This document shows, in pieces, positions 5,060 through 25,608 of a DNA stretch of 32,000 nucleotides. A program made the translations under genes and the position numbers. Where the stretch lies: positions 16,001 to 48,000 of the forward strand of contig JAUMWT010000012.1 of NCBI GenBank assembly GCA_030529505.1, in the 5' to 3' direction. The notes under the pieces were generated by a model. It was not told the origin of the DNA. It ran no database searches and was given only the letters and a program-made list of their open reading frames with translations. The number at the start of each line of letters is the position of its first letter. Position 1 is the first letter of the stretch. This DNA comes from Brachymonas sp. (GTDB lineage Bacteria; Pseudomonadota; Gammaproteobacteria; Burkholderiales; Burkholderiaceae_C).

Positions 5060-6106
5060 ATGTCCAAAAAAACTGCCCACCCCTCGCCCGAAAACGGCAC
5101 CTTGTCTGCCGAAGTCAACGCCCAGCTTCAGGCCATTTTGGGGCGGAGTGCGTCATCGGGTGCGGGCGAGACAGCTGCAAGAGAAAGTGCTGTGGCCAGC
5201 GTGCCAGCAGCTGAACAACACTGCGGCCTGATCGCTATTGTGGGTCGCCCCAATGTGGGCAAATCCACATTGCTGAATGCGTTGGTGGGGCAAAAAATCA
5301 GCATCACCAGCCGCAAGGCGCAAACCACGCGCCACCGCATCATGGGTATCTGCACACGTGGCGTCTATCAATATGTGTTTGTCGATACGCCCGGCTTTCA
5401 AACCCGGCACGGCAATGCGCTCAACAAATCCTTGAACAAGGCCGTGGCCGGCGCCGTATCGGACGTGGACTTGGTGCTGTTCGTGGTTGAGGCCGGACGC
5501 TTTGGCGCGGAAGATGTCAAGGTGCTGGAACTGCTGCCGCCCAATGTGCCCGTGATCTTGATCGCCAGCAAGCTCGATGCCGTGCCTCAGCGCCAGAACC
5601 TGCCGCCCTGGTTGCTGGAAATGCAGCAGCGCCACCCCTTTGCCGAGCTGATGCCCATTTCCGCCAAAAACCGCCAGGACGTGCAGCGCGTGCTGGACGT
5701 GGTGGCGCGCTACCTGCCGCAGCAGCCGTGGTGGTACGGTGCCGATGAGCTCACCGACAAAAGCGAGCGCTTTCTGGCTGCCGAAATCGTGCGCGAAAAA
5801 CTGTTCCGCCTGACGGGCGATGAACTGCCCTACACCTCCACCGTGGTGGTCGATCAGTTCGAAGAAGAACCCGGCAAACAAGCTGCCCGCATGGTGCGCA
5901 TCGCCGCCACCATCATCGTTGAGCGTGAGGGGCACAAGGTCATGGTCATCGGTGAAAAAGGTGAACGCATCAAACGCATCGGCACCGAAGCCCGGCAGGA
6001 GCTGGAAAAACTGCTCAACGCCAAAGTCTTTATCGAACTGTGGGTCAAGGTGCGATCGGGCTGGGCCGACGATGCCGCCCGTGTGCGGGCGTTTGGGTAT
6101 GAGTGA
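5060..6106 (+). CDS. era: GTPase Era
   Basis: 348 aa from ATG 5060; the track ORF starts at TTG 5054. G1 motif [13 protein letters not shown]3 motif DTPG, KH-type C-terminal half. About 55 aa of low-complexity N-terminal extension. Confidence 0.92.
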
Positions 6107-6138
6107 ATGCGGGTGCCGTAACCATCGGCCCATTCATT

Positions 6139-6150
6139 TGGCGGGACGAT
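6139..6150. repeat. Weak third att-like copy (tggcgg-gacgat)
   Basis: Matches the 13-nt tRNA-Ser 3'-end core tggcggagacgaa at 11 positions with a 1-nt gap. Lies 33 nt after the era stop. Short, so it could be chance. Confidence 0.25.
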
Positions 6151-6314
6151 GCGCACACATGCTTAAATGTGCGCGTCAAGACTTTACCCTTTTGCTCTTT
6201 GCGTATGTACTTGGGGCTGGAGCAAAGCTTATTCGGGGATAAGGTAGATACCAGCTTAGATTGTTAGATTGAGCCTAGAGAGCGTTGGGCGTTGATTTGT
6301 TCGTGATCAACGTA

Positions 6315-6378
6315 GAAATCGAGGCAGAAAAAAGCCCACAAGCGCAAGCTGATGGGCAGTCATTGAATCTCAAATTTG
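6315..6378. repeat. Direct repeat: copy of the prophage right end (3' end of the HTH gene)
   Basis: gaaatcgaggcagaaaaaagcccacaagcgcaagctgatgggc... aligns with 14468..14531 (gaaatcgaggcagaaaaaaagcccacaagcgcgagcttatgggc...). The first ~45 nt differ only by one extra A and two substitutions; similarity is weaker for the next ~20 nt. Confidence 0.75.
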
Positions 6379-6387
6379 AAAAACAAA

Positions 6388-6412
6388 AACGCCCTGGAAG
6401 GGGCGTTTTTAT
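6388..6412. terminator. Bidirectional terminator-like hairpin
   Basis: AACGCCC-tggaag-GGGCGTT flanked by an A-run (aaaaacaaaaa) and a T-run (ttttt). Confidence 0.45.
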
Positions 6413-6418
6413 TGAGCC

Positions 6419-6431
6419 TGACGGAGACGAA
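6419..6431. repeat. Putative attL core (tgacggagacgaa)
   Basis: 12 of 13 nt identical to 14530..14542 (tggcggagacgaa), which is the reverse complement of the last 13 nt of tRNA-Ser including CCA. Lies just outside the recombinase gene and its terminator. Confidence 0.55.
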
Positions 6432-6463
6432 CGTTTCCGAGTATTGCGTATGGTTAAAAAATA

Positions 6464-6495
6464 CAACAAAAAGCCAGCAAGTTGCTGGTTTTTTT
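6464..6495. terminator. Bidirectional terminator hairpin downstream of the recombinase gene
   Basis: CCAGCAA-g-TTGCTGG with T7 on the plus side and ctttttgttg on the minus side. Begins 5 nt after the TGA (6500-6502) that ends the out-of-frame HTH segment of the recombinase. Confidence 0.6.
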
Positions 6496-6499
6496 GTGC

Positions 6500-7077
6500 T
6501 CAAGGGTCAGCAGCCGAGAAGATTTCTGCATGGTACTTCTTGAAGTAGCGCTTGATGGCAGAGGTTGTCATACCCTACCTTCTCGATATTTCAGGCCTCG
6601 TGACTCCTCGCCAATACAAGGCTTTGATGTTGCGCAGAGCGTCGTCAGGGATGGTGCAGGGACGGCGCTGAGCCTGGCCCCTTTTTCGACGGCTGCACGC
6701 TGGCCGGCAATGGAGCGTTCGCGGATGAGGTTGCGTTCGAGTTCTGCGACGGCTCCCAATATCTGGAGCATGAAGCGGCCCAAGTAGTTATCGGTTTGAA
6801 CGGGTTCGGTGAGGCTGCGAAATTTGCAGCCTTTGCGTTCCAGTGTTTCCAGTATGTGCAGCAGGTCTTTGAGGCTTCTCGCCAAGCGATCCAGTTTGTA
6901 GACCAACAGGGTGTCGCCGGGCTTGACCGCTTGGAGGAGTTTTTGCAGTTCCGGGCGGGCGCCAACGCTACTGGTTTTTTCGTGGTAAATGTGCTCTGCG
7001 CCAGCTTCTTGCAGGGCGTCGAGTTGCAGTTGGGTGTCTTGTTCGATGCTGCTGACACGGGCGTATCCGTAGATCAT
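6500..7077 (-). pseudogene. Small serine recombinase (resolvase/invertase family), C-terminal HTH domain disrupted
   Basis: Catalytic domain is intact in ORF 6568..7077: MIYGYARVSSIEQD, LLVYKLDRLARS, ILGAVAELERNLIRERS. After ...AAVEKG the frame gives unrelated residues. The expected DNA-binding domain (RRPCTIPDDALRNIKALYWRGVTRPEISRR*GMTTSAIKRYFKKY) is read in a frame offset by a net 1-nt deletion, contains TAG at 6575-6577 and ends at TGA 6500-6502. A homopolymer run A5G4 (6678-6686) sits at the likely shift point. Confidence 0.7.
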
Positions 7078-7196
7078 TTGGGCTCCTTGGGTAGTAAATT
7101 AGCTCACGTTGCAAAAGCCACGCCAGAACCCGCTGTGCGGAACCTGGCATGTCTTTTGGCTTTAACGTTCGCTGCGCGAAAAACAGCTCTAGCCCG

Positions 7197-7271
7197 AATT
7201 TGCACACACCTCCATCAAGCCCCCACCCAGGGTGAGGGGCGATTGATGGAGGTGTCTGGTTTGTGCAAATT
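7197..7271. repeat. Long imperfect inverted repeat (extended hairpin)
   Basis: aatttgcacacacctccatcaa (7198-7218) pairs with ttgatggaggtgtctggtttgtgcaaatt (7243-7271). The inner part gcccccaccc/gggtgaggggc also pairs. Confidence 0.5.
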
Positions 7272-7291
7272 ACGGGCTTTCGCCCGTTTTT
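7272..7291 (+). terminator. Terminator-like hairpin
   Basis: ACGGGC-tttc-GCCCGT followed by TTTTT, immediately after the long inverted repeat. No annotated plus-strand gene lies upstream. Confidence 0.4.
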
Positions 7292-7388
7292 CTATGTGAT
7301 GATTTGAGCACCCTATCCCCCCCGCCCCTTTCCCCTAGGAAAGGGGAGCGAGGGAGCTTCTTTCTGAAGGTGTCTAAAAGGGAAAAAG

Positions 7389-7622
7389 ATGAACGATTGG
7401 GAATTGGTGAGTGAGTTGCAAGACGTTGAAACGTTTGCAAAGGGTTCGGCCATCCGGGAGCTTCGGCGCTTGATTCGGGCGTATGGCGGTTCAAACTGGC
7501 GCAAGCGCAAGGGGTTCGGCTGGGTGCGCTTGGAGTCTGGCGAAATTTGCGAAGCTGAACTACACTGGTACGAGGCGCACGGTGTGGGCAAGGTTGAAAT
7601 GAAGATCAAGGACTTTCTATGA
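7389..7622 (+). CDS. Hypothetical small protein, upstream member of an overlapping two-gene cassette
   Basis: 77 aa, ATG with AAGGGAAAAAG upstream. C-terminal motif WRKRKGFGWVRLESGEICEAELHWYEAHGVGKVEMKIK, which I recall from conserved small hypothetical proteins in diverse bacteria. Its stop overlaps the next start (ATGA at 7619-7622). Confidence 0.7.
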   Translation: MNDWELVSELQDVETFAKGSAIRELRRLIRAYGGSNWRKRKGFGWVRLESGEICEAELHWYEAHGVGKVEMKIKDFL

Positions 7623-7828
7623 GCTGGGTAATTTGCATCAATAACGAAGGGTACGAAGCAAGTTTGGAGCGGCGCAAGCTGTATCAGGTGTTGCCTGATG
7701 CCAAGGCCGAAAGCAAGAACATGGTTCGCGTGGTGGATGAGTCAGGTGATGACTATCTGTATTCGGCCAAGTTGTTTGAAAAGATTGAGGTTGCCAAACT
7801 GCTTGAACAGCAGTTGATGGTTGCATAA
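7619..7828 (+). CDS. Hypothetical small acidic protein, downstream member of the cassette
   Basis: 69 aa, translationally coupled by the ATGA overlap. Motif YEASLERRKLYQVLPD...VRVVDESGDDYLYSAKLF resembles a recurrent partner of the upstream family (from memory). Confidence 0.7.
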   Translation: MSWVICINNEGYEASLERRKLYQVLPDAKAESKNMVRVVDESGDDYLYSAKLFEKIEVAKLLEQQLMVA

Positions 7829-7845
7829 GAAATTTGCTCGACGTA

Positions 7846-7890
7846 GCTGGCGAAGCGTATCCCCACAAGTGGGGCCCCTCGCTCGCCAGC
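7846..7890. terminator. Convergent (bidirectional) terminator structure between the cassette and zot
   Basis: Nested hairpin: outer gctggcgaagcg / cgctcgccagc, inner CCCCAC-aa-GTGGGG (7861-7874). Lies between two convergent genes. Confidence 0.5.
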
Positions 7891-7909
7891 ACGCTCGCAA
7901 AAATCAACA

Positions 7910-9259
7910 TCACTCTTTCCCTGTAGTCACTGATCGCCGCTCCGCCACCACGGCAGGCGTGTGTTCCATGTAGATCGTGCGCGGGCGCGTTGGCTCGGCA
8001 ACGTTCACGCTGCGCAGGTGTCTATCATCAGAATAGGCACCTGTTGCACTGTCCATCACCAACGGCCTATCTGCTGCACCGCTGGCAAGCGGCGGCGGAT
8101 CGCAAGTCACAGCACGTTTTTTCGCACCGGGGTACTCCAACACACCGAGGCAATGCGCAAAGCGCTTCCACGTGTAACCCGCAGCCTCTAAATCCTTGTC
8201 GGTAACCTCGAAGAACGTTTGCCCGCCCTCGCTCACCACGAAGGCCGTCAACTCTTTCGCGCCCATCTTCAGGTGTCCCACTTGATGGATCAACTTGCCC
8301 ATGAGTGGTTCAAAGGGTTCTTCTTTTTTTTCTGGCTCGGCAGGCTGCGAGGCAGGCGCTTGCGGCAGCGGAGCGGCCGAAATCAGCACGGGCACCGGCT
8401 CTTTGCTTTGTTCGACTGTTTGCTTTGCTTTTGGCTCATCGGGCAATTTCACGCCCCAAAAGCTGTAGCCCTGCTTCGGCCAGAAGGCCCAGATCACGAA
8501 GGCGGCGCCTACCGTCAAGAACGCATAGGCAGCGCGCTTGATCTTGACGATCTTCGGAGACACATCAGACAAACCCGCTTCTTGCACCGTCTGGCTTTGC
8601 GTGTGGCTTTTGTAGAAGGGGAAGATGGTCGGGTCATACTTTCGCGTTTCTCTGCTCAATTCCGCACCACGGTAGCCACCGTGGACACGCCTTATGTACT
8701 CGCCCTTTTTGCCCAAGATGTCAGCTTTTCGGAGCTTGATAAGGCTGGCGAGCAAGATGCTCAAGGAACCATGCACATCACGCCAGCTTTGTGTGATGCC
8801 GGTGACGTCTGCGCCGAAGTGGCGCGAGAGCTTGGCCCACTGGATCACTTCTTTCAATTCCTTGGGCGGCATCAAGCCCTTGGGCCAAGCGTTGTGACAC
8901 TCATCGACCACGTAGAGCGGGCCTATGCCGCCCTCGCCACGCCATTCATCGTAGAAGTCCCACACGTGGCCAAACACGGGTACATCGGGCGGGTTTTCTG
9001 TGCGACCATCTTCGAAGAGCCTGAACGCCATTTCGCCACGGCTGGCTGCGTCAGCGTCCCAAGTCCCCCTGATTGGTTGCGGGAACTTGCGCACTTCAAT
9101 CAGAGCCGCCCAATCCGGGTTGATGGCCCTGATCTGATCTATTTGAAGGGGCAGATTGGTGATGACTTTTCGGCCAGCTTTGAGCGCGGGCAGGATGTGG
9201 TAATGCACGGCCTCATAACTTTTGCCGGAGCCGGGGATTCCTTCAATTCCAGACCACAT
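7910..9259 (-). CDS. Zot-like assembly ATPase (inovirus pI)
   Basis: 449 aa. N-terminal Walker A GIPGSGKSY in the context MWSGIEGIPGSGKSYEAVHYHILPALKAGRKVITNL, typical of the Zot/pI family. Central TM helix AYAFLTVGAAFVIWAFW. It is the last gene of the structural/assembly block. Confidence 0.9.
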   Translation of the reverse strand: MWSGIEGIPGSGKSYEAVHYHILPALKAGRKVITNLPLQIDQIRAINPDWAALIEVRKFPQPIRGTWDADAASRGEMAFRLFEDGRTENPPDVPVFGHVWDFYDEWRGEGGIGPLYVVDECHNAWPKGLMPPKELKEVIQWAKLSRHFGADVTGITQSWRDVHGSLSILLASLIKLRKADILGKKGEYIRRVHGGYRGAELSRETRKYDPTIFPFYKSHTQSQTVQEAGLSDVSPKIVKIKRAAYAFLTVGAAFVIWAFWPKQGYSFWGVKLPDEPKAKQTVEQSKEPVPVLISAAPLPQAPASQPAEPEKKEEPFEPLMGKLIHQVGHLKMGAKELTAFVVSEGGQTFFEVTDKDLEAAGYTWKRFAHCLGVLEYPGAKKRAVTCDPPPLASGAADRPLVMDSATGAYSDDRHLRSVNVAEPTRPRTIYMEHTPAVVAERRSVTTGKE

Positions 9260-9263
9260 TTTT

Positions 9264-9578
9264 TTATCTACCTATGAAAGGAATGAAACGCAAACTTTTG
9301 CGAACACCGATAGCAGCCACAACAACCGATGCCGCTTGACCAATACCCAAAAGACCCAGCACGTTGAGCACTTCAGAGGGCAACTCACCCCAGCCCGTCA
9401 CACCATCCAAAGCGGAAAGATCAATCTCTCTCAAAGCATCTATTCCAATCTCCAAGAACTTTTCAAAGAGCCAAGCAAAAATGTCTTTGAAGATGTCCCA
9501 AAGTGCCTTGAATATGTTTTTGAACAGATCCGCAAACCACTGGATCATGTCAATGAGTGCTTTTTTCAGCCAATCCAT
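9264..9578 (-). CDS. Minor coat protein candidate (pVI-like)
   Basis: 104 aa, amphipathic/hydrophobic (LGLLGIGQAASVVVAAIGV). Sits immediately upstream of zot and downstream of the pIII-like gene, as gVI does in Ff-type genomes. Assignment is by position and composition only. Confidence 0.5.
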   Translation of the reverse strand: MDWLKKALIDMIQWFADLFKNIFKALWDIFKDIFAWLFEKFLEIGIDALREIDLSALDGVTGWGELPSEVLNVLGLLGIGQAASVVVAAIGVRKSLRFIPFIGR

Positions 9579-9580
9579 GC

Positions 9581-9712
9581 TTAGGCCCTAAAAACAATCC
9601 TGTGAGCAAGAATCAGTGCACACACCATCACGATTGCACGCAAGATGGGCCAGATGGTGCAGGGCGGCGCAAGGTTCAGCAATCCAAAATTCATTCCCTT
9701 GCCCCAGTTCAT
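9581..9712 (-). CDS. 43-aa membrane-anchor segment, in frame with the pIII-like ORF
   Basis: MNWGKGMNFGLLNLAPPCTIWPILRAIVMVCALILAHRIVFRA: one TM helix plus a short basic tail. Its ATG is 3 codons after the TAG (9722-9724) that ends the pIII-like ORF, in the same reading frame, with no Shine-Dalgarno. Below the 60-aa cut-off of the ORF track. Confidence 0.45.
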   Translation of the reverse strand: MNWGKGMNFGLLNLAPPCTIWPILRAIVMVCALILAHRIVFRA

Positions 9713-9721
9713 ATCAATCTG

Positions 9722-10867
9722 CTATTTCGGACAAGTGCCGCTATTCACTGTGGGCATCAAACGTTTGGATAACTGGCCCAATTTGGTGTTTTGCAACTGG
9801 CCTTTTTTCTGATCCCACACACCCTTGATGCCGTTTTTGTAACGTGGCTCATAAAGGCCGGGATGCTTGCCGAAGGATGGGCCAGCGCCGTCTTCGCCTT
9901 TGTCCTTGTCGCCTTTGCCATCGCCCTTGCCCTTGCCCTTTCCGTCACCTTTTCCACCACCCCAGCCGCTGCCGAAACCCGGACCGGTGCCTGTTCCTTT
10001 GCCCGGGCCATTTCCGCCACCCGAACCACCGCCAGAGCCGCCACCGCTGCCCGGGCCTGTGCCGCTGCCTTGGCCGTTTCCATTGCCAGTTCCTTGACCG
10101 TCGCCAGAGCCACTATTTCCGTTGCCGGTTCCTTGCCCATTTCCTGAACCATCATCATTTGAATCACCAGGGTTAGACGGCTTCGGCGGGCTGCCCGAAT
10201 CGCCGCAGGGCACACAAACGCGCTTGCCATTAACAATGCCCGGACACTGGTTTTTGCTGATAGGACAGACCAATGGCTCTTCTGGCTCCTTTGGCTTTGG
10301 CATTTCTTCTTTTGGAGGTTTTGGGGTGTCTGGCTGCGGGTTTTGCTCTTCATCAAGTGACACTCCACCACCTTTGCATTGTCCACCTGTGTAAGTCACG
10401 CCCTCAACGCCAAAAGTGCAACTTGTTTCTTCGCAAACGTCTACTGAAAATGAACCTTTAATGACACAGCCATCTTGACAAAGTGATATTGGCCCTTTCC
10501 CTCTACTCAGCAAACGATCAACATTCTCTTTTCCAGTAACGGTTGCACTGGCTGTGCCGTCTCCATGTTTTTGGCCTTTTTGGGCGGCGCATTTATTCTT
10601 TTTGCAGCCCCTCTTAAAAAGAGAAGTTCCACCCTCAGCCCCTCTAGAATTCACAATATAAACACATGTATCAGGACCCGATCGCTTATAAGAAAGTGTA
10701 AACCCCTGATAACTTGACTGTATATACGTCATATAGTTCCGACACGCCTGCTCGTGTGACTCAAACCACGTCTCAGAACGTGAATGCCTGAATTCAAAAC
10801 AACTTTCTTCAGCAAGAACTGGCGCAGCAAGCACAAACAAAAAAATTGCCGTTATTTGTTTTTTCAT
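9722..10867 (-). CDS. Adsorption/minor coat protein candidate (pIII-like), lacking its own C-terminal anchor
   Basis: 381 aa. Signal peptide MKKQITAIFLFVLAAPVLA, Cys-rich N-terminal half, ~95-aa Gly/Ser/Asn/Lys-rich linker. Located between the major coat gene and the pVI-like/Zot genes. Ends at TAG. Confidence 0.6.
   Translation of the reverse strand: MKKQITAIFLFVLAAPVLAEESCFEFRHSRSETWFESHEQACRNYMTYIQSSYQGFTLSYKRSGPDTCVYIVNSRGAEGGTSLFKRGCKKNKCAAQKGQKHGDGTASATVTGKENVDRLLSRGKGPISLCQDGCVIKGSFSVDVCEETSCTFGVEGVTYTGGQCKGGGVSLDEEQNPQPDTPKPPKEEMPKPKEPEEPLVCPISKNQCPGIVNGKRVCVPCGDSGSPPKPSNPGDSNDDGSGNGQGTGNGNSGSGDGQGTGNGNGQGSGTGPGSGGGSGGGSGGGNGPGKGTGTGPGFGSGWGGGKGDGKGKGKGDGKGDKDKGEDGAGPSFGKHPGLYEPRYKNGIKGVWDQKKGQLQNTKLGQLSKRLMPTVNSGTCPK
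9865..10150 (-). repeat. Gly-rich low-complexity coding repeats (pIII-like linker)
   Basis: Encodes GSGNGQGTGNGNSGSGDGQGTGNGNGQGSGTGPGSGGGSGGGSGGGNGPGKGTGTGPGFGSGWGGGKGDGKGKGKGDGKGDK. Degenerate short tandem units at the DNA level. Confidence 0.8.
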
Positions 10868-10880
10868 TTTGTTTTCTCAC

Positions 10881-10973
10881 TTATTTGATAAATGACAGAA
10901 AACAAAATGCCCCGATTGCACCAATCAGCGCGAAGATCACGTGGATCAATACAATCAGGGCAAGGGTGAGCAT
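10881..10973 (-). CDS. 30-aa hydrophobic micro-ORF between the coat and pIII-like genes
   Basis: MLTLALIVLIHVIFALIGAIGAFCFLSFIK. ATG lies 8 nt after the coat gene stop, and the stop lies 13 nt before the pIII-like start. Weak SD. Below the ORF-track cut-off. Confidence 0.35.
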   Translation of the reverse strand: MLTLALIVLIHVIFALIGAIGAFCFLSFIK

Positions 10974-10981
10974 AGCGAGGC

Positions 10982-11212
10982 TTAGATGTTGCCGATCACA
11001 CGCTTGGCCACGCTCACGGCTTTGATGGCAAAGTAGATGCCGACCACAACCAGACCCACGGCAGCCACCTTGGTTGCTGCGCCGCTCAAGCCAATGCCTT
11101 CCAACAGCGTGGTCACGGGGTCAGCGGCAAAGGCGGTGTTGGCCAGCATGCCAGCACCAGCCACGACGGGCACCAGATAACGGCTTTTAACGTTTGCGAG
11201 AGTTTTTTGCAT
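10982..11212 (-). CDS. Major coat protein (pVIII-like)
   Basis: 76 aa. Signal peptide ending AFA, then a mature ~47-aa peptide with an acidic N-terminus (ADPVTTLLEG), a hydrophobic core (VAAVGLVVVGIYFAI) and a basic C-terminus (KAVSVAKRVIGNI). This is the classic inovirus coat architecture. Confidence 0.8.
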   Translation of the reverse strand: MQKTLANVKSRYLVPVVAGAGMLANTAFAADPVTTLLEGIGLSGAATKVAAVGLVVVGIYFAIKAVSVAKRVIGNI

Positions 11213-11230
11213 AACAGTTCCTTTCTGTTC

Positions 11231-11258
11231 AATTTTTCAAAAGGTGCGAAATTGCACC
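11231..11258 (-). terminator. Terminator/attenuator-like hairpin just upstream of the coat gene
   Basis: On the minus strand GGTGC-aatttc-GCACC is followed by TTTTGAAAAATT. A second hairpin aaaccca/tgggttt lies at 11262-11281. Confidence 0.4.
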
Positions 11259-11316
11259 CCAAAACCCACCAAAATGGGTTTCAGGCTGGAATTTCTTTCA
11301 GCAATGATCGTAAAAA

Positions 11317-11472
11317 TCAATCCATCATGTCGCTAAATCCATCTTCGTATCCGGCATCATAAACCTCATCAAAAAACACTTCCTCTGCATCCGCTAAACC
11401 GTCCTCATATCCTTCTTCGTATATTTTGTCTATTTTCCGTTCGTAAAGCCAATCAGAAATTGAAGAAAACAT
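11317..11472 (-). CDS. 51-aa highly acidic micro-ORF
   Basis: MFSSISDWLYERKIDKIYEEGYEDGLADAEEVFFDEVYDAGYEDGFSDMMD. AAAGGA lies ~7 nt upstream of the ATG. AT-richer than the surrounding DNA. Below the ORF-track cut-off. Confidence 0.4.
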   Translation of the reverse strand: MFSSISDWLYERKIDKIYEEGYEDGLADAEEVFFDEVYDAGYEDGFSDMMD

Positions 11473-11545
11473 AATCAATCCTTTCAATCAATAAACACAA
11501 AAAATGGATGGCATGAATCGCAGCTATTGCATATTCGTACTTCAT
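11453..11545 (-). CDS. 30-aa micro-ORF (pVII/pIX-sized)
   Basis: MKYEYAIAAIHAIHFLCLLIERIDYVFFNF. Its ATG overlaps the stop of the upstream ORF (ATGA at 11542-11545). It is the last 30 codons of track ORF 11453..11815, whose upstream part I consider spurious. Confidence 0.3.
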   Translation of the reverse strand: MKYEYAIAAIHAIHFLCLLIERIDYVFFNF

Positions 11546-11754
11546 AGCTGGCTGATGATTATTTTTGCAATGCCCACGGCATAACCCGATAGCCCCAAGC
11601 TCATGACGATTGCAAAGCCCAGCGCAACGGATTTGCTGATGCTTTCGGCTGTGATGCCGAGCGCTTGGAGGTTTTCCGTAGTCAGAAGCAATATCCGGTT
11701 TTGAAATTCCAGCGGGCAGGGCATTGCTGCGTTTTGGCACTCGAACAGGTACAT
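11542..11754 (-). CDS. Small membrane protein (70 aa)
   Basis: From ATG 11754 (the track ORF extends to 11790): MYLFECQNAAMPCPLEF...VALGFAIVMSLGLSGYAVGIAKIIISQL, with a C-terminal TM helix. Confidence 0.45.
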   Translation of the reverse strand: MYLFECQNAAMPCPLEFQNRILLLTTENLQALGITAESISKSVALGFAIVMSLGLSGYAVGIAKIIISQL

Positions 11755-11811
11755 GGCTATTCCTAAAAATCGCCCCCCACTGCCCAGCACGCTGGGTAGG
11801 TGGTTGCGATC

Positions 11812-12147
11812 TCAATCGGCAATGGCTTCCAAGGTGATATCTACGGGCGTCACCATGCTGATTTCGCCTGTTTCCTTGTCGGTGAACTTGAAGGGTTTAC
11901 GGCGGTATCCACCCAGCTTGCACAGCTGGCGGATTTCTTCGTCACGCTGGCCCAGGCGTCTGCTGCTTTTGATGACGACGACCGAGGGCGAGCTGTATTG
12001 ATCGGTGGCCGGGCAGATGACGGTGGTGTAAATCGACTTGTCATAGCTGCGGACGTTTTCAACCTTGCCAAACACCATCACTTGCATGGGCTTGATGCCG
12101 ATGGCGGGTTGGTTGGCGGGTGCTGCTGTACTCATTTCAATCTCCAT
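11812..12147 (-). CDS. ssDNA-binding protein candidate (pV-like)
   Basis: 111 aa, or 107 aa from ATG 12135, which has GGAG 7 nt upstream. Lies immediately downstream of the rep gene, and its size fits gV. No motif recognised, so the assignment is positional. Confidence 0.45.
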   Translation of the reverse strand: MEIEMSTAAPANQPAIGIKPMQVMVFGKVENVRSYDKSIYTTVICPATDQYSSPSVVVIKSSRRLGQRDEEIRQLCKLGGYRRKPFKFTDKETGEISMVTPVDITLEAIAD

Positions 12148-12151
12148 TTCT

Positions 12152-13342
12152 TCATGCCGCCATGGTCAAAATGCGCGAGTTCGCAGAGAACTCGGCACGG
12201 CTGCGGGCGGGCAGGATGCACAGCCGTGAATCGGTGGGAAGGGGGGCGAAATCCGCGGGCAGCAGGGCATCGTTGGCGACGACGTGCACGTCACTGCCGC
12301 GCCAACTCACGCCTGCTTGTTCCAAGTCGCGGCGGTTCTGGAAAAAGGTGCTGCGGCTGTATTGGCGCTTGGTGGCCTCATCGCCCAGCGTCACCATCGA
12401 CGACCAGAAGCCATACAGGCGCATGCCTTTTTGCTGGCCGTATTCGGTGTTCAGTCGGGTCATCACTTGTTGGGTGGTGCGTACGGTTTGCATGGCTTGC
12501 TTTCCTTCTCGCAGAAGTCGCTCAACTTCGTTTGCGTGTACTTTGTGCAGGTAGTCATCGTTCAAATCCTTAACGCGCGGCTGCTTGCCGAGGTCGTAGA
12601 CAAACTTGTCGGAATGGATGGAAACTTCCACGCGCAGCCGGTTGTTGGCCAGGCGGTGCAGGGCATCGACTTTGCGCGTGGCTTTTTTCAGGTTGTCGGC
12701 GTGTGCGCCGTGGTTGATGTCGTAAAAGGTTTTGAAGAAACCGCGTAGGCGTGCGTAATCGTGGGCTTTGAACTCGGTGCCCTTGTGATACAGCTTGATC
12801 GTGGTGGTGCGGCCGGGGAAATGCGCGGCCATTTCGTAGCGGCTGGCCTTGCGCGTGCGGCGTGGGAATGACAGCAGTTGCAGACCATCGAAGAACTGCT
12901 TGATGGCGGGTTGCGGCAAGGCGTAGACGTGGCTTACGTCCACTTTCAGCACTTGCCAGTTCTGGTAATCGGGCAGCGGCACTTCCAGCAGCTTTTGCAG
13001 AACGTCCACAAAGGCGGAGCAACAGTGCTGGATATCGCTGCTACCGCCAAAAATGTTTTGGCCGTAGAGCACTTTGTGGATGGATGCCTCAACCACTATG
13101 TAGGGCGGGGAATCGACCAAACGCGGGCGGCCAGATCCATCCGTCACCCACTCTTCCTTTTTGGGCTGCACGCTGATGCGGGCGTCCCAACTGCCCATAA
13201 GTTCGCCGGTGTGCAACTCATAGAGCAGTTCGCCGCTTTCCATGTCGGTGCCTTGGCGCAGAATGCACTTGTTCTGGATGCGTTCAAACAGGCCCGGGGA
13301 GAGCAGAAACGGGGAGCGCAGGCGCAGGGTGTCGTAGGCCAC
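12152..13342 (-). CDS. Rolling-circle replication initiation protein (pII-like)
   Basis: 396 aa, GTG start. First large gene of the module and followed by the ssDNA-binding candidate. The N-terminal region (YDTLRLRSPF...EASIHKVLYGQNIFGG) resembles the phage replication-protein family I recall (Phage_CRI type); not searched. Confidence 0.65.
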   Translation of the reverse strand: MAYDTLRLRSPFLLSPGLFERIQNKCILRQGTDMESGELLYELHTGELMGSWDARISVQPKKEEWVTDGSGRPRLVDSPPYIVVEASIHKVLYGQNIFGGSSDIQHCCSAFVDVLQKLLEVPLPDYQNWQVLKVDVSHVYALPQPAIKQFFDGLQLLSFPRRTRKASRYEMAAHFPGRTTTIKLYHKGTEFKAHDYARLRGFFKTFYDINHGAHADNLKKATRKVDALHRLANNRLRVEVSIHSDKFVYDLGKQPRVKDLNDDYLHKVHANEVERLLREGKQAMQTVRTTQQVMTRLNTEYGQQKGMRLYGFWSSMVTLGDEATKRQYSRSTFFQNRRDLEQAGVSWRGSDVHVVANDALLPADFAPLPTDSRLCILPARSRAEFSANSRILTMAA

Positions 13343-13344
13343 TT

Positions 13345-13767
13345 TTACGCCCCTTGGGGAAGGGTTGGGGAAAGGGCCGGAGTCCGAAAGTTCGGACTCT
13401 CGTGCGGTGCTACCACGCCCGCACGAGAAAAATGCACCTCGGGGATGGCAGTGGAAATTTGCGCCGCGTTAAGGGCGCAGTTCTCGCCCGCCGCGCGCTG
13501 CGCATGCAGGCGAGAAACCGCGCCCTCAGCGCACGCGCACATTCCGTCAGCGTGTCCTTGGCAGATTTCAAGAGCAGAGGCTGGGCGGGCAAAGTAGCCA
13601 TCCAGGTGGTTCCAGAGCTTGCCCCACTCTTGGCCGCGGCATTCGAAGCATTCGACGACTTCGGCGCAGATTCCCGTGCCTTGTTTCTTATACTGAACGT
13701 GCAGACGTTCTTTTTTGGTGATTCCGCAGGCGTAGGCTGCGCGGAACAATTCAGCGTGCGTAGCCAT
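13345..13767 (-). CDS. Hypothetical protein upstream of rep (uncertain)
   Basis: 140-aa ORF. The N-terminal half looks protein-like (MATHAELFRAAYACGITKKERLHVQYKKQGTG...). The C-terminal half coincides with inverted repeats (13473-13525, 13381-13400) and may be non-coding. The start is only 10 nt from the divergent gene at 13778. Confidence 0.3.
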   Translation of the reverse strand: MATHAELFRAAYACGITKKERLHVQYKKQGTGICAEVVECFECRGQEWGKLWNHLDGYFARPASALEICQGHADGMCACAEGAVSRLHAQRAAGENCALNAAQISTAIPEVHFSRAGVVAPHESPNFRTPALSPTLPQGA

Positions 13768-13777
13768 AGGAGAAGCT

Positions 13778-14185
13778 ATGAAAAAGTGGATTGGATTGAT
13801 TGCGTGCCTGGCCGTGGGCTGTGCGGTGGCGCAGCCGGTTTACCGTTGCGGCAATACCTACTCGCATGAGCCTTGCCCAGGTGCAAAGCTTGTGGATACG
13901 ACGTACACGGAAGGCGTGGACACCTTGAGCGGCAAGCCGCGTATTCATCACAACGAAAGCATCAAACGAACCTTTCGTGATCTGAGCTACACGGTCAGAG
14001 GCGGAGCCAAGAGTGGGCCTGGCTTTCAGGAGGGGTACGACGCCAGAAGACGCAGAAGTGCGAACAACTTGTCTTACAGCCAGATGCGCGAATGCGAAAA
14101 GCTGGATGAGGCCATGCCACTGGAAAAAAAAGACCCCAACAGGCTGTACGAGCTGCGCTTGCAGTACAGGCGTGGCGGGTGTTGA
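13778..14185 (+). CDS. Secreted small protein (DUF4124-like)
   Basis: 135 aa, GGAGAAG upstream. Signal peptide MKKWIGLIACLAVGCAVA followed by QPVYRCGNTYSHEPCPG, the pattern I associate with DUF4124. C-terminal ...LRLQYRRGGC. Confidence 0.6.
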   Translation: MKKWIGLIACLAVGCAVAQPVYRCGNTYSHEPCPGAKLVDTTYTEGVDTLSGKPRIHHNESIKRTFRDLSYTVRGGAKSGPGFQEGYDARRRRSANNLSYSQMRECEKLDEAMPLEKKDPNRLYELRLQYRRGGC

Positions 14186-14217
14186 TCGGGGTGCTAGCTG
14201 GCTCATGTGCTAAAGTG

Positions 14218-14248
14218 GAATTCGCAAATCACGAAATTCGTAATTTGC
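14218..14248. promoter_or_regulatory. Operator-like repeats upstream of the HTH gene
   Basis: GCAAAT (14224-14229) and ATTTGC (14243-14248) form an inverted repeat 13 nt apart. AATTCG occurs twice. AT-rich stretch 30-60 nt upstream of ATG 14279. Confidence 0.25.
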
Positions 14249-14278
14249 TTAATCTACTTCGACGTGAGGTGTTTGAAA

Positions 14279-14587
14279 ATGCTAGTGAAAACCCTAATTG
14301 ACAAGGCTAAGCAAAAAAGCTTGCTTTCTCAGCGTCAAATGGCAGTGGAACTGCAAACTTGTGACTCTGTTGTCAGTGATTGGAAGAAGGGGAGGAGCCT
14401 GCCAAGCCCCGTCCAGACTGCTTTTCTGGCGAAATTGGCCGGTGTCGATCCGCTTGTGGCCATCGCGGAAATCGAGGCAGAAAAAAAGCCCACAAGCGCG
14501 AGCTTATGGGCTGCCATTGGCGTCAAAATTGGCGGAGACGAAGGGATTCGAACCCTTGATGCAGCTCATCACCGCATACTCCCTTAG
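14279..14587 (+). CDS. HTH (Cro/XRE-like) regulator, putative prophage repressor
   Basis: 102 aa from ATG 14279 (GAGG ~9 nt upstream; the track ORF begins at GTG 14207). Contains LLSQRQMAVELQTCDSVVSDWKKGRSLP, an HTH-like segment. The last ~19 codons read into the tRNA-Ser gene. Confidence 0.55.
   Translation: MLVKTLIDKAKQKSLLSQRQMAVELQTCDSVVSDWKKGRSLPSPVQTAFLAKLAGVDPLVAIAEIEAEKKPTSASLWAAIGVKIGGDEGIRTLDAAHHRILP
14468..14531. repeat. Direct repeat partner of 6315..6378
   Basis: See 6315..6378. Here it encodes the C-terminal part of the HTH protein (EIEAEKKPTSASLWAAIG...). Confidence 0.75.
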
Positions 14588-14622
14588 CAGGGGAGCACCT
14601 TCGGCCTCTCGGTCACGTCTCC
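14530..14622 (-). tRNA. tRNA-Ser (anticodon GCU), class II with long variable arm, CCA encoded
   Basis: The reverse complement GGAGACG-TG-ACC-GAGAGGCCGAA-GGT-G-CTCCC-CTGCTAA-GGGAG-TATGCGGTGATGAGCTGCATC-AAGGG-TTCGAAT-CCCTT-CGTCTCC-G-CCA folds into a full cloverleaf. Confidence 0.93.
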
Positions 14623-25137: not shown

Positions 25138-25608
25138 TCACTGCTCAAACAGCTCCACCACATATCCAACCGACCTATCCCTTTCCATCAACTTCGGCTG
25201 GCAAACCTCCACCAACGAACAGGCTTTACAACGTTTGCCGTATTCCGGTGGCGGGGTGATGCCGCTTTCCAGAAGTTCGCGTACCTGACGGATAACGTCC
25301 AGCGTCTGCGCCCTAAGGCCGTCTGAAAACACTACTGGCACGCGGTGGTGGGTTTGCATCTACCACAATGCGCCCTCTGCCACCGTTTGCCCGGTCATTT
25401 CCTCCAAGCACATGGCTTGGGCGCAGAGCTGGATTTCGTCGAAGGGCTCGGGCTTTGGTTTGCCGTGTTTGTATTCCACAGGTTTCAGGTAGCTCGTTTT
25501 TGTATCGCGCTCGAGCATATCCAGCACACCGTGCATGCTTAAGTTTTCTGCCGACGCATATGGCAGTACTTGAGGTGCTGCAAATCTCTTGGAGCGAGTG
25601 TGCCGCCT
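25138..25608 (-). pseudogene. cas4: cas4 remnant (5'-truncated, in-frame TAG)
   Basis: A single minus-strand frame gives ...[87 protein letters not shown]...KRCKACSLVEVCQPK. This has the RecB-like VEYKxG and QLCAQAxCLEEM motifs and the C-terminal CX2CX5C cluster of Cas4. TAG at 25360-25362. The N-terminal ~45 aa are missing, and the frame abuts the sixA stop codon. Confidence 0.75.

Follow-up and report, generated by a model that had tools for sequence, protein, structure and literature searches.

A probable TGG-to-TAG nonsense mutation in the pIII/CoaA-type gene of a filamentous prophage of Brachymonas sp.

Introduction

Filamentous phages carry five copies of the minor coat protein pIII at the filament tip (PMC10175506). 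In pIII of phage f1, Cys354 and Cys371 bracket a β-hairpin that precedes the membrane (M) helix; incorporation and release depend on this helix, on the hairpin and on the L4 linker, and phages with mutated hairpin cysteines fail to assemble (PMC10175506). A C-terminal fragment of 83 residues fails to terminate assembly, whereas one of 93 residues succeeds (PMC10175506), and classical amber and C-terminal truncation mutants of gene III are referred to in the same paper (Rakonjac & Model 1998; Rakonjac, Feng & Model 1999, as cited in PMC10175506). Among filamentous phages (inoviruses) that integrate into the genome of their host, phiRSM1 and phiRSM3 of Ralstonia use a resolvase-like serine recombinase (Int) and a 13-base att core in a tRNA-Ser gene, and carry a repressor beside attP (PMC4471427). 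Here we describe a pIII/CoaA-type gene that is interrupted by an in-frame TAG. It lies in a stretch of 32,000 nucleotides (nt) from Brachymonas sp. (assembly GCA_030529505.1, contig JAUMWT010000012.1, positions 16,001 to 48,000), which was analysed as a whole and is called the window below. Positions 6419-14542 of the window are a phiRSM-like filamentous prophage of about 8.1 kb, integrated at tRNA-Ser(GCU). The source assembly (2.39 Mb in 100 contigs, 83.5% complete, 4.25% contamination) is probably a metagenome-assembled genome. Its Era protein shares 72-76% identity with Era of Ramlibacter, Acidovorax and Xylophilus, which puts the host among Comamonadaceae-like Burkholderiales.

Results

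The pIII-type gene is on the (-) strand, where an open reading frame (ORF) of 381 codons runs from an ATG at 10865-10867 to the in-frame TAG at 9722-9724. Past the TAG, the same frame continues with CAG ATT GAT and an ATG at 9710-9712 and ends at a TAA at 9581-9583. These are 46 codons in total, of which the last 43 are opened by the internal ATG, and the ATG of a pVI-like gene (9576-9578) starts 2 nt beyond the TAA. Re-reading of the frames confirmed this layout, which had been described in an earlier reading of the window made without database searches (hereafter the sequence-only reading). As also claimed there, no GGAG-like Shine-Dalgarno motif was seen upstream of the internal ATG upon inspection of the sequence.

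The conceptual read-through product has 428 residues. Its hydropathy maximum is at residues 403-426, entirely past the TAG (Kyte-Doolittle 19-residue mean of 2.23), and the second-highest value is at residues 5-23 (mean of 1.79), in an N-terminus (MKKQITAIFLFVLAAPVLA) that is signal-peptide-like by sequence and hydropathy. These are the only two transmembrane-grade segments of the protein, which also contains 14 cysteines within residues 23-221 and a Pro/Gly-rich linker. The 46 residues past the TAG score 53.9 bits against a hidden Markov model (HMM) of the C-terminal domain of the family, so this open frame did not arise by chance. Hydropathy, the homologues and the gene order bear out the claim that the locus encodes a pIII-type protein with its anchor past the stop. 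Unless the TAG is read through, the 46 codons are untranslated.

The 99-residue C-terminal domain was used as the query of a full HMMER scan, which matched 630 representatives at E ≤ 0.001, 369 of them at E ≤ 1e-10. The family counts given here (n = 151) rest on the matches listed, 150 among the 630 representatives, aligned with the two homologues P0002 (445 residues) and P0003 (417 residues). All 150 alignments span the TAG position and reach to within two residues of the end of the protein. The TAG column lies inside the conserved motif G-[TS]-C-P-x-W and is occupied by Trp in 116 of the 151 sequences, by Phe in 19, by Met in 15 and by Ile in one; a stop occurs in 0/151. P0002 and P0003, retrieved by a word-based search, are single continuous proteins that read ...CPSW... 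and ...CPRW... at this site, and the DNA of the two closest relatives (the loci L004 for P0002 and L003 for P0003) has TGG at the position of the window's TAG. In addition, a prophage in the same-genus genome G005 has a continuous gene of 427 residues with Phe at the TAG column. In L003, L004 and G005 the stop of the pIII gene abuts or overlaps the start of the pVI gene. The domain also matched PHROG families 4544, 815, 31956, 11232 and 10432 up to their last positions, and by tblastn it matched CoaA of Pseudomonas phage 17897 (OR621025.1; 30.7% identity, E = 1e-11).

The alignment with pIII-like homologues that the sequence-only reading had proposed thus gave a sense codon at the TAG position in all 151 representatives listed and in L003, L004 and G005. 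Since the relatives are continuous, with a Trp column and TGG in the closest DNA, we explain the TAG as a one-base TGG>TAG nonsense change. Probably, the pIII/CoaA-type gene was broken by this change of a Trp codon and the element is a decaying, grounded prophage. The gene is a member of the pIII/CoaA family by descent, yet a pseudogene.

Other searches found few relatives. P0003 was the sole result of a word-based search with the C-domain region, none of 50,697 phage records matched the structural module at the DNA level, and a pattern search of genome and viral contigs with a four-protein alignment gave low-complexity matches only and no relatives. TonB-like matches in the word-based protein search were spurious and were caused by the Pro/Gly-rich linker (9869-10192).

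The TAG is also present in the Logan assembly of sequencing run SRR24915849. Two contigs of this assembly match the window at 100% identity: one of 2309 bp covers 8606-10914 with the TAG, and the other covers 6019-8630 with the era-prophage junction and the broken recombinase gene described below. The Logan contigs and the draft genome probably come from the same reads. From the same run a sister inovirus was assembled (the locus L003, Logan SRR24915849_78151), whose pIII is intact. The two phages share about 78% DNA identity in the pIII C-domain, pVI and the N-terminus of pI. Their pIII C-domains are 76% identical at the protein level and their N-terminal receptor-binding parts are unrelated, which suggests that the adsorption domain has been exchanged as a module between them. 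The L003 contig and the contig matching 8606-10914 end on identical 30-mers, as a de Bruijn graph that branches at shared words would lead one to expect.

A second gene of the element is broken as well. In the serine recombinase, the reading frame of the catalytic domain holds as far as 6568, and the helix-turn-helix (HTH) region, recognised by weak HTH matches, is in another frame (6497-6685) that carries a TAG at 6575-6577. The prophage of G005 has an intact homologue of 193 residues (L030:6775-7356) with Phe at the position of this TAG, and both the frameshift and the TAG are exactly reproduced in the Logan contig. Because the recombinase is independently broken, we regard the element as decaying and grounded; its core genes other than pIII and the recombinase look intact. 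A recent nonsense mutation in a grounded prophage had been one of three alternatives in the sequence-only reading, and it is this one that Trp and TGG in the relatives and the second broken gene support. That the 46 downstream codons are still open would be explained by a lesion that is young relative to the divergence from the relatives.

The proposed change falls three residues past Cys379. This residue and Cys403, both 93% conserved in the family (among the matches listed), bracket a conserved hairpin of the C-terminal assembly domain, Cys379 being the first of the two. By analogy with Ff pIII, translation would stop at residue 381, and the product would end halfway through the hairpin, before Cys403 and the helix. 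It would be exported via its signal peptide but not be anchored in the inner membrane, and would be unable to pair with pVI or to cap or release the filament. On the same analogy, the prophage alone would be expected to make no infectious particles, and any translational coupling from pIII to pVI would also be lost. A low-confidence AlphaFold model of the C-domain (three-sequence alignment, pLDDT 49) places strands at positions 63-65 and 78-80 and a helix at 87-107 of the 109-residue construct. A profile search of PDB sequences found no pIII chain, its sole match being a chance one to a catalase (E = 1.2).

The conserved columns of the C-domain are not kept equally well on the two sides of the TAG. 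Of the columns with a conservation of 90% or more, the window retains all 11 before the TAG, whereas after it 4 of 11 are lost (R422H, L424I, G427R and G428A, each in a column that is at least 93% conserved; hypergeometric p about 0.045). Counted over 14 conserved columns of the post-TAG part, 10 are retained. The terminal ...FGG, 98-100% conserved in the 151 relatives listed, reads ...FRA in the window. With the family consensus as outgroup, window-specific changes stand to sister-specific (L003) changes as 8:1 past the TAG, compared with 2:1 ahead of it, and the ratio of post-TAG to pre-TAG divergence, 1.88, is near the 95th percentile of comparable family pairs. At the sequence level this is suggestive of relaxed constraint downstream of a real stop, although the relative-rate test depends on the outgroup and the excess is small.

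The pIII-type gene is flanked by the major coat gene on one side and by the pVI-like and pI/Zot genes on the other (Table 1). PHROG matches in the element comprise the major coat protein, a single-stranded DNA-binding protein, a replication protein and an HTH regulator. The 13-nt att core is present in two copies in the window, which differ by one mismatch; none is expected by chance.

Table 1. Features of the prophage and of its interrupted pIII-type gene (window coordinates)
Feature	Position	Strand	Basis
Left att core TGACGGAGACGAA	6419..6431	(+)	13-nt repeat search
Resolvase-type serine recombinase (Int), broken	6497..7077	(-)	PF00239; HTH matches in other frame
pI / Zot-like assembly ATPase gene	7910..9259	(-)	PF05707 (5.8e-23), phrog_197
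pVI-like minor coat gene (DUF2523)	9264..9578	(-)	PF10734, phrog_974
pIII/CoaA-type minor coat (adsorption) pseudogene	9581..10867	(-)	frame; full-length homologues P0002, P0003; CoaA match, gene order
46 post-TAG codons: rest of Cys-bracketed hairpin (Cys403) and C-terminal helix	9584..9721	(-)	family HMM, low-confidence model
Membrane-anchor segment CTIWPILRAIVMVCALILAHRIVF, residues 403-426	9590..9661	(-)	peak Kyte-Doolittle windows, 2.23
In-frame TAG at conserved Trp column	9722..9724	(-)	TGG in L003, L004; n=151 alignment; F in G005
First half of conserved C-terminal (assembly) domain, ends G-T-C-P-K with Cys379	9725..9868	(-)	family alignment
Pro/Gly-rich low-complexity linker	9869..10192	(-)	translation
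Cys-rich N-terminal ectodomain, presumed receptor-binding	10193..10810	(-)	translation; alignable in part with P0002, not with P0003
Signal-peptide-like N-terminus MKKQITAIFLFVLAAPVLA, residues 1-19	10811..10867	(-)	sequence, hydropathy 1.79
Major coat protein gene	10982..11212	(-)	phrog_6548
Rolling-circle replication initiator gene (Phage_CRI Rep)	12152..13342	(-)	PF05144, phrog_702
HTH transcriptional regulator (repressor-like), right prophage end	14207..14587	(+)	phrog_638
Right att core TGGCGGAGACGAA, at 3' end of tRNA-Ser(GCU) 14530-14622 (-)	14530..14542	(+)	repeat search, tRNA

Several further observations were made in and around the element. The C-terminal assembly domain (window 9584-9880 (-)) defines a large family of 630 representatives at 50% clustering that is without a Pfam model; its motifs are L-Y-x-x-K-Y-x-x-G, G-x-C-P-x-W, P-P-C-x-x-W and a terminal F-G-G, and the five PHROG families that hold it are all labelled 'unknown function'. 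The C-terminus of the pVI-like protein (window 9264-9310 (-)) reads ...VRKSLRFIPFIGR, as against ...IRLVLQLVPFTRLGS in L003 and G005. A two-gene cassette (7389-7828 (+)), encoding 77 and 69 residues with a stop/start overlap, is located in the interval from the recombinase to pI and is read in the direction opposite to that of the structural genes. An imperfect direct repeat of about 80 nt (76-89%) is found at 6288-6365 and 14441-14519; its left copy, beyond the left att core, is a duplicate of the regulator gene's 3' end and was probably left behind by an earlier related element. Besides the tRNA gene at the right prophage end, the assembly has another tRNA-Ser(GCU) gene (G000 contig C39:43123-43218), which could be a true extra copy or contamination (4.25%). 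Outside the prophage, the cas4 gene (25138-25536 (-)) is broken by a TAG at 25360-25362, where solved Cas4 structures (8d3l, 7mi4) have Tyr or Phe; its N-terminal third is missing too, and with it about 53 positions at the start of the Pfam Cas4 profile.

Alternative explanations

The alternative that survives best, although we consider it improbable, is unprogrammed leaky termination. Near-cognate decoding of UAG(C) would then give a small anchored fraction beside a mostly soluble periplasmic ectodomain, and the phage would be weakly productive. UAG is in general leakier than UAA, and a U at the +4 position lowers read-through (PMC5289835); here the +4 base is C rather than the strong-termination U. 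The intact downstream frame and the helix core, nearly identical to that of the sister phage, would fit such a mechanism, for which five copies of pIII per virion suffice (PMC10175506). The stop is unconserved, however, and no stimulatory structure accompanies it, the invariant GG and two further conserved residues are gone from the tail, and near-cognate insertion is often Gln, Lys or Tyr whereas the column accepts only W, F, M and I. Moreover, with its recombinase dead too, the element is decaying in any case.

It is very unlikely that the TAG arose from wrong base calls or faulty assembly, or that a minority allele entered the consensus by chance while the real population has a sense codon. 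The incomplete and fragmented draft, with its 4.25% contamination, and the related phage variant in the same run leave some room for such an explanation. Nevertheless, an independent assembler reproduced the identical 2309-bp sequence with the TAG and, equally, the two further lesions in the adjacent recombinase, and the sister variant, about 78% identical here, is too distant for a single-base chimera. An exact-protein look-up of the 428-residue sense allele gave no record in the collection searched. Likewise, an exact 27-mer across the site, with R at the mutated base, had no match in metagenome, viral and genome collections, so that neither allele occurs in other public contigs; exact-protein look-ups of the coat protein, pI and the regulator gave no record either.

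We give as little credence to the idea that the amber codon is tolerated or even favoured. In this case a soluble ectodomain would occupy the receptor or co-receptor and shield the lysogen, with read-through or the sister phage in trans supplying the five anchored copies. If true, this would mean protection against related filamentous phages, for example the sister variant in the same sample.

No test supports recoding, programmed read-through or suppression. The sequence-only reading had offered programmed or suppressor-dependent amber read-through as its first alternative, and we rejected programmed read-through on several grounds. The stop is found in none of the 151 relatives, and no stimulatory RNA structure was found in the 141 nt from just before the TAG to 120 nt beyond it, which fold less stably than shuffled sequences (z = +1.42). 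The proposed search for a tRNA with a CUA anticodon was carried out with ARAGORN and found none among the 29 tRNAs of the genome, a set that is incomplete and without Trp, Tyr, Glu, Asp, Ala and Ile. Release factor 1 (RF1) is encoded by an intact prfA (489 bits against a curated cut-off of 423 bits). Genome-wide, a coding-like continuation in a candidate frame that is the best of six follows 8.5% of TAG, 8.8% of TGA and 11.4% of TAA stops. A two-fold excess for TAG in the first genome-wide pass (21% vs 11%) was spurious: it stemmed from shadow frames on the antisense strand, which turn CTA Leu codons into TAG, and it disappeared under the best-of-six requirement.

That the host has an amber suppressor tRNA or reads TAG as sense, so that all three in-frame TAGs of the window (in pIII, the recombinase HTH region and cas4) would be translated, we regard as scarcely credible. 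Such a reading draws on the fact that all three nonsense lesions in the window are TAG and on the incompleteness of the genome and of its tRNA set. Judged from codon usage, however, 54% (host) and 40-43% (phage) of single-base nonsense changes give TAG, and therefore three out of three has a p of about 0.1. The expected residues also differ between the sites (W in pIII, F in the recombinase according to the intact G005 homologue, Y/F in cas4), and the recombinase frameshift and the missing Cas4 N-terminus are lesions beyond repair by a suppressor. In addition to the missing CUA anticodon and the intact prfA, TAG terminates about 10% of confident host genes and continuation after it is no commoner than after TGA or TAA. 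None of 10 phage genes has TAG as its own stop, which is uninformative because TAG ends just about 10% of host genes.

A genuinely split gene, with the 43-codon ORF translated alone (e.g. by re-initiation 9 nt past the TAG), inserted N-out and rejoined via Cys379-Cys403, is the least credible: an ATG does lie 9 nt past the stop and two conserved cysteines flank the break, but no relative is split (P0002, P0003, G005 and the 151 representatives listed), a word-based search with the 46-residue tail for a stand-alone anchor ORF, of limited sensitivity and confined to proteins 0.55-1.75 times its length, returned nothing, no Shine-Dalgarno motif is present, and the ATG column is Leu in 103 of the 151 relatives, so the start is unconserved. 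The sequence-only reading had itself named two separate ORFs in homologues as the mark of a split gene, and since the homologues are single continuous ORFs, this alternative is refuted.

Discussion

Some of our observations weigh against a pseudogene in a grounded prophage, or at least soften the case for it. Neither a second stop nor a frameshift is seen in the 46 codons past the TAG, and the helix core differs hardly at all from that of the sister phage, which also fits continued (weak) use. The excess of window-specific changes is gone when G005 serves as outgroup (4:5, window to sister), and pVI of the window is faster as well (15:7 private changes against the sister), which makes a general speed-up of the lineage indistinguishable from relaxed constraint. 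The agreement of the Logan contigs with the draft genome, both probably from run SRR24915849, excludes a quirk of the assembler, but not polymorphism at 9723 within the population. The missing CUA anticodon is weakened as an argument by the incomplete tRNA set, in which six specificities are missing in a genome that is 83.5% complete. Finally, the functional consequences are inferred from the Ff phages, whose pIII has no detectable sequence similarity to the protein studied here.

Read as a pseudogene, the locus should be annotated as one pIII/CoaA-type pseudogene instead of a secreted protein of 381 residues and an orphan ORF of 43 residues. Point-mutated pseudogenes in defective prophages are an ordinary and common prophage fate. 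The locus also calls for caution in genome scans: in G+C-rich genomes about half of single-base nonsense changes are TAG, and therefore several in-frame TAGs in one region are by themselves no sign of amber suppression.

The phage is undescribed and belongs to known kinds through its phiRSM-like integration and its CoaA-like tip protein. The window prophage resembles the phiRSM phages in that a resolvase-type recombinase and an HTH regulator occupy its opposite ends and a 13-nt core recurs in the 3' end of a tRNA-Ser gene. It differs from them in its broken recombinase and in its tRNA, which is Ser(GCU) instead of Ser(UCG), and no phiRSM record in the phage collection was matched by the pIII C-domain query. 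Integration of Pf4, in contrast, involves a tyrosine recombinase and a tRNA-Gly gene (PMC4471427).

With Pseudomonas phage 17897 the element shares an identical gene order (Rep, gp5-like, CoaB, CoaA, gp6-like, Zot-like). The aligned part of the 99-residue query, 89% of it and its C-terminal part, extends to the very end of the annotated CoaA. Unlike the gene in the window, CoaA of this phage is continuous, and the N-terminal receptor-binding parts of the two proteins are unrelated.

The Ff pIII has the same position in the gene order coat - pIII - pVI - pI and the same parts, namely a signal peptide, a Gly-rich linker, a two-Cys hairpin and an Arg-containing C-terminal membrane helix, which in the window are complete in the read-through frame only. 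The spacing of the hairpin cysteines is 24 residues in the window family and 17 in f1. While the gene III mutants of Ff phages are laboratory constructs in suppressor strains, the TAG of the window is a natural prophage lesion.

Programmed stop read-through is exemplified by the A1 protein of Qbeta and by the amber codon between insert and gIII in phage-display phagemids. With the locus described here, these systems share the idea that a stop determines how much of a protein is made short and soluble and how much is made long and attached to the virion. Their stops, however, are conserved or engineered and have defined suppressors or contexts, whereas the stop in the window is unique among more than 151 relatives and lies inside a folded domain without a supporting context. 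The element resembles defective filamentous prophages in being an integrated inovirus with inactivated structural and recombination genes. It was inactivated by point changes, namely one frameshift and two TAGs, and not by deletions.

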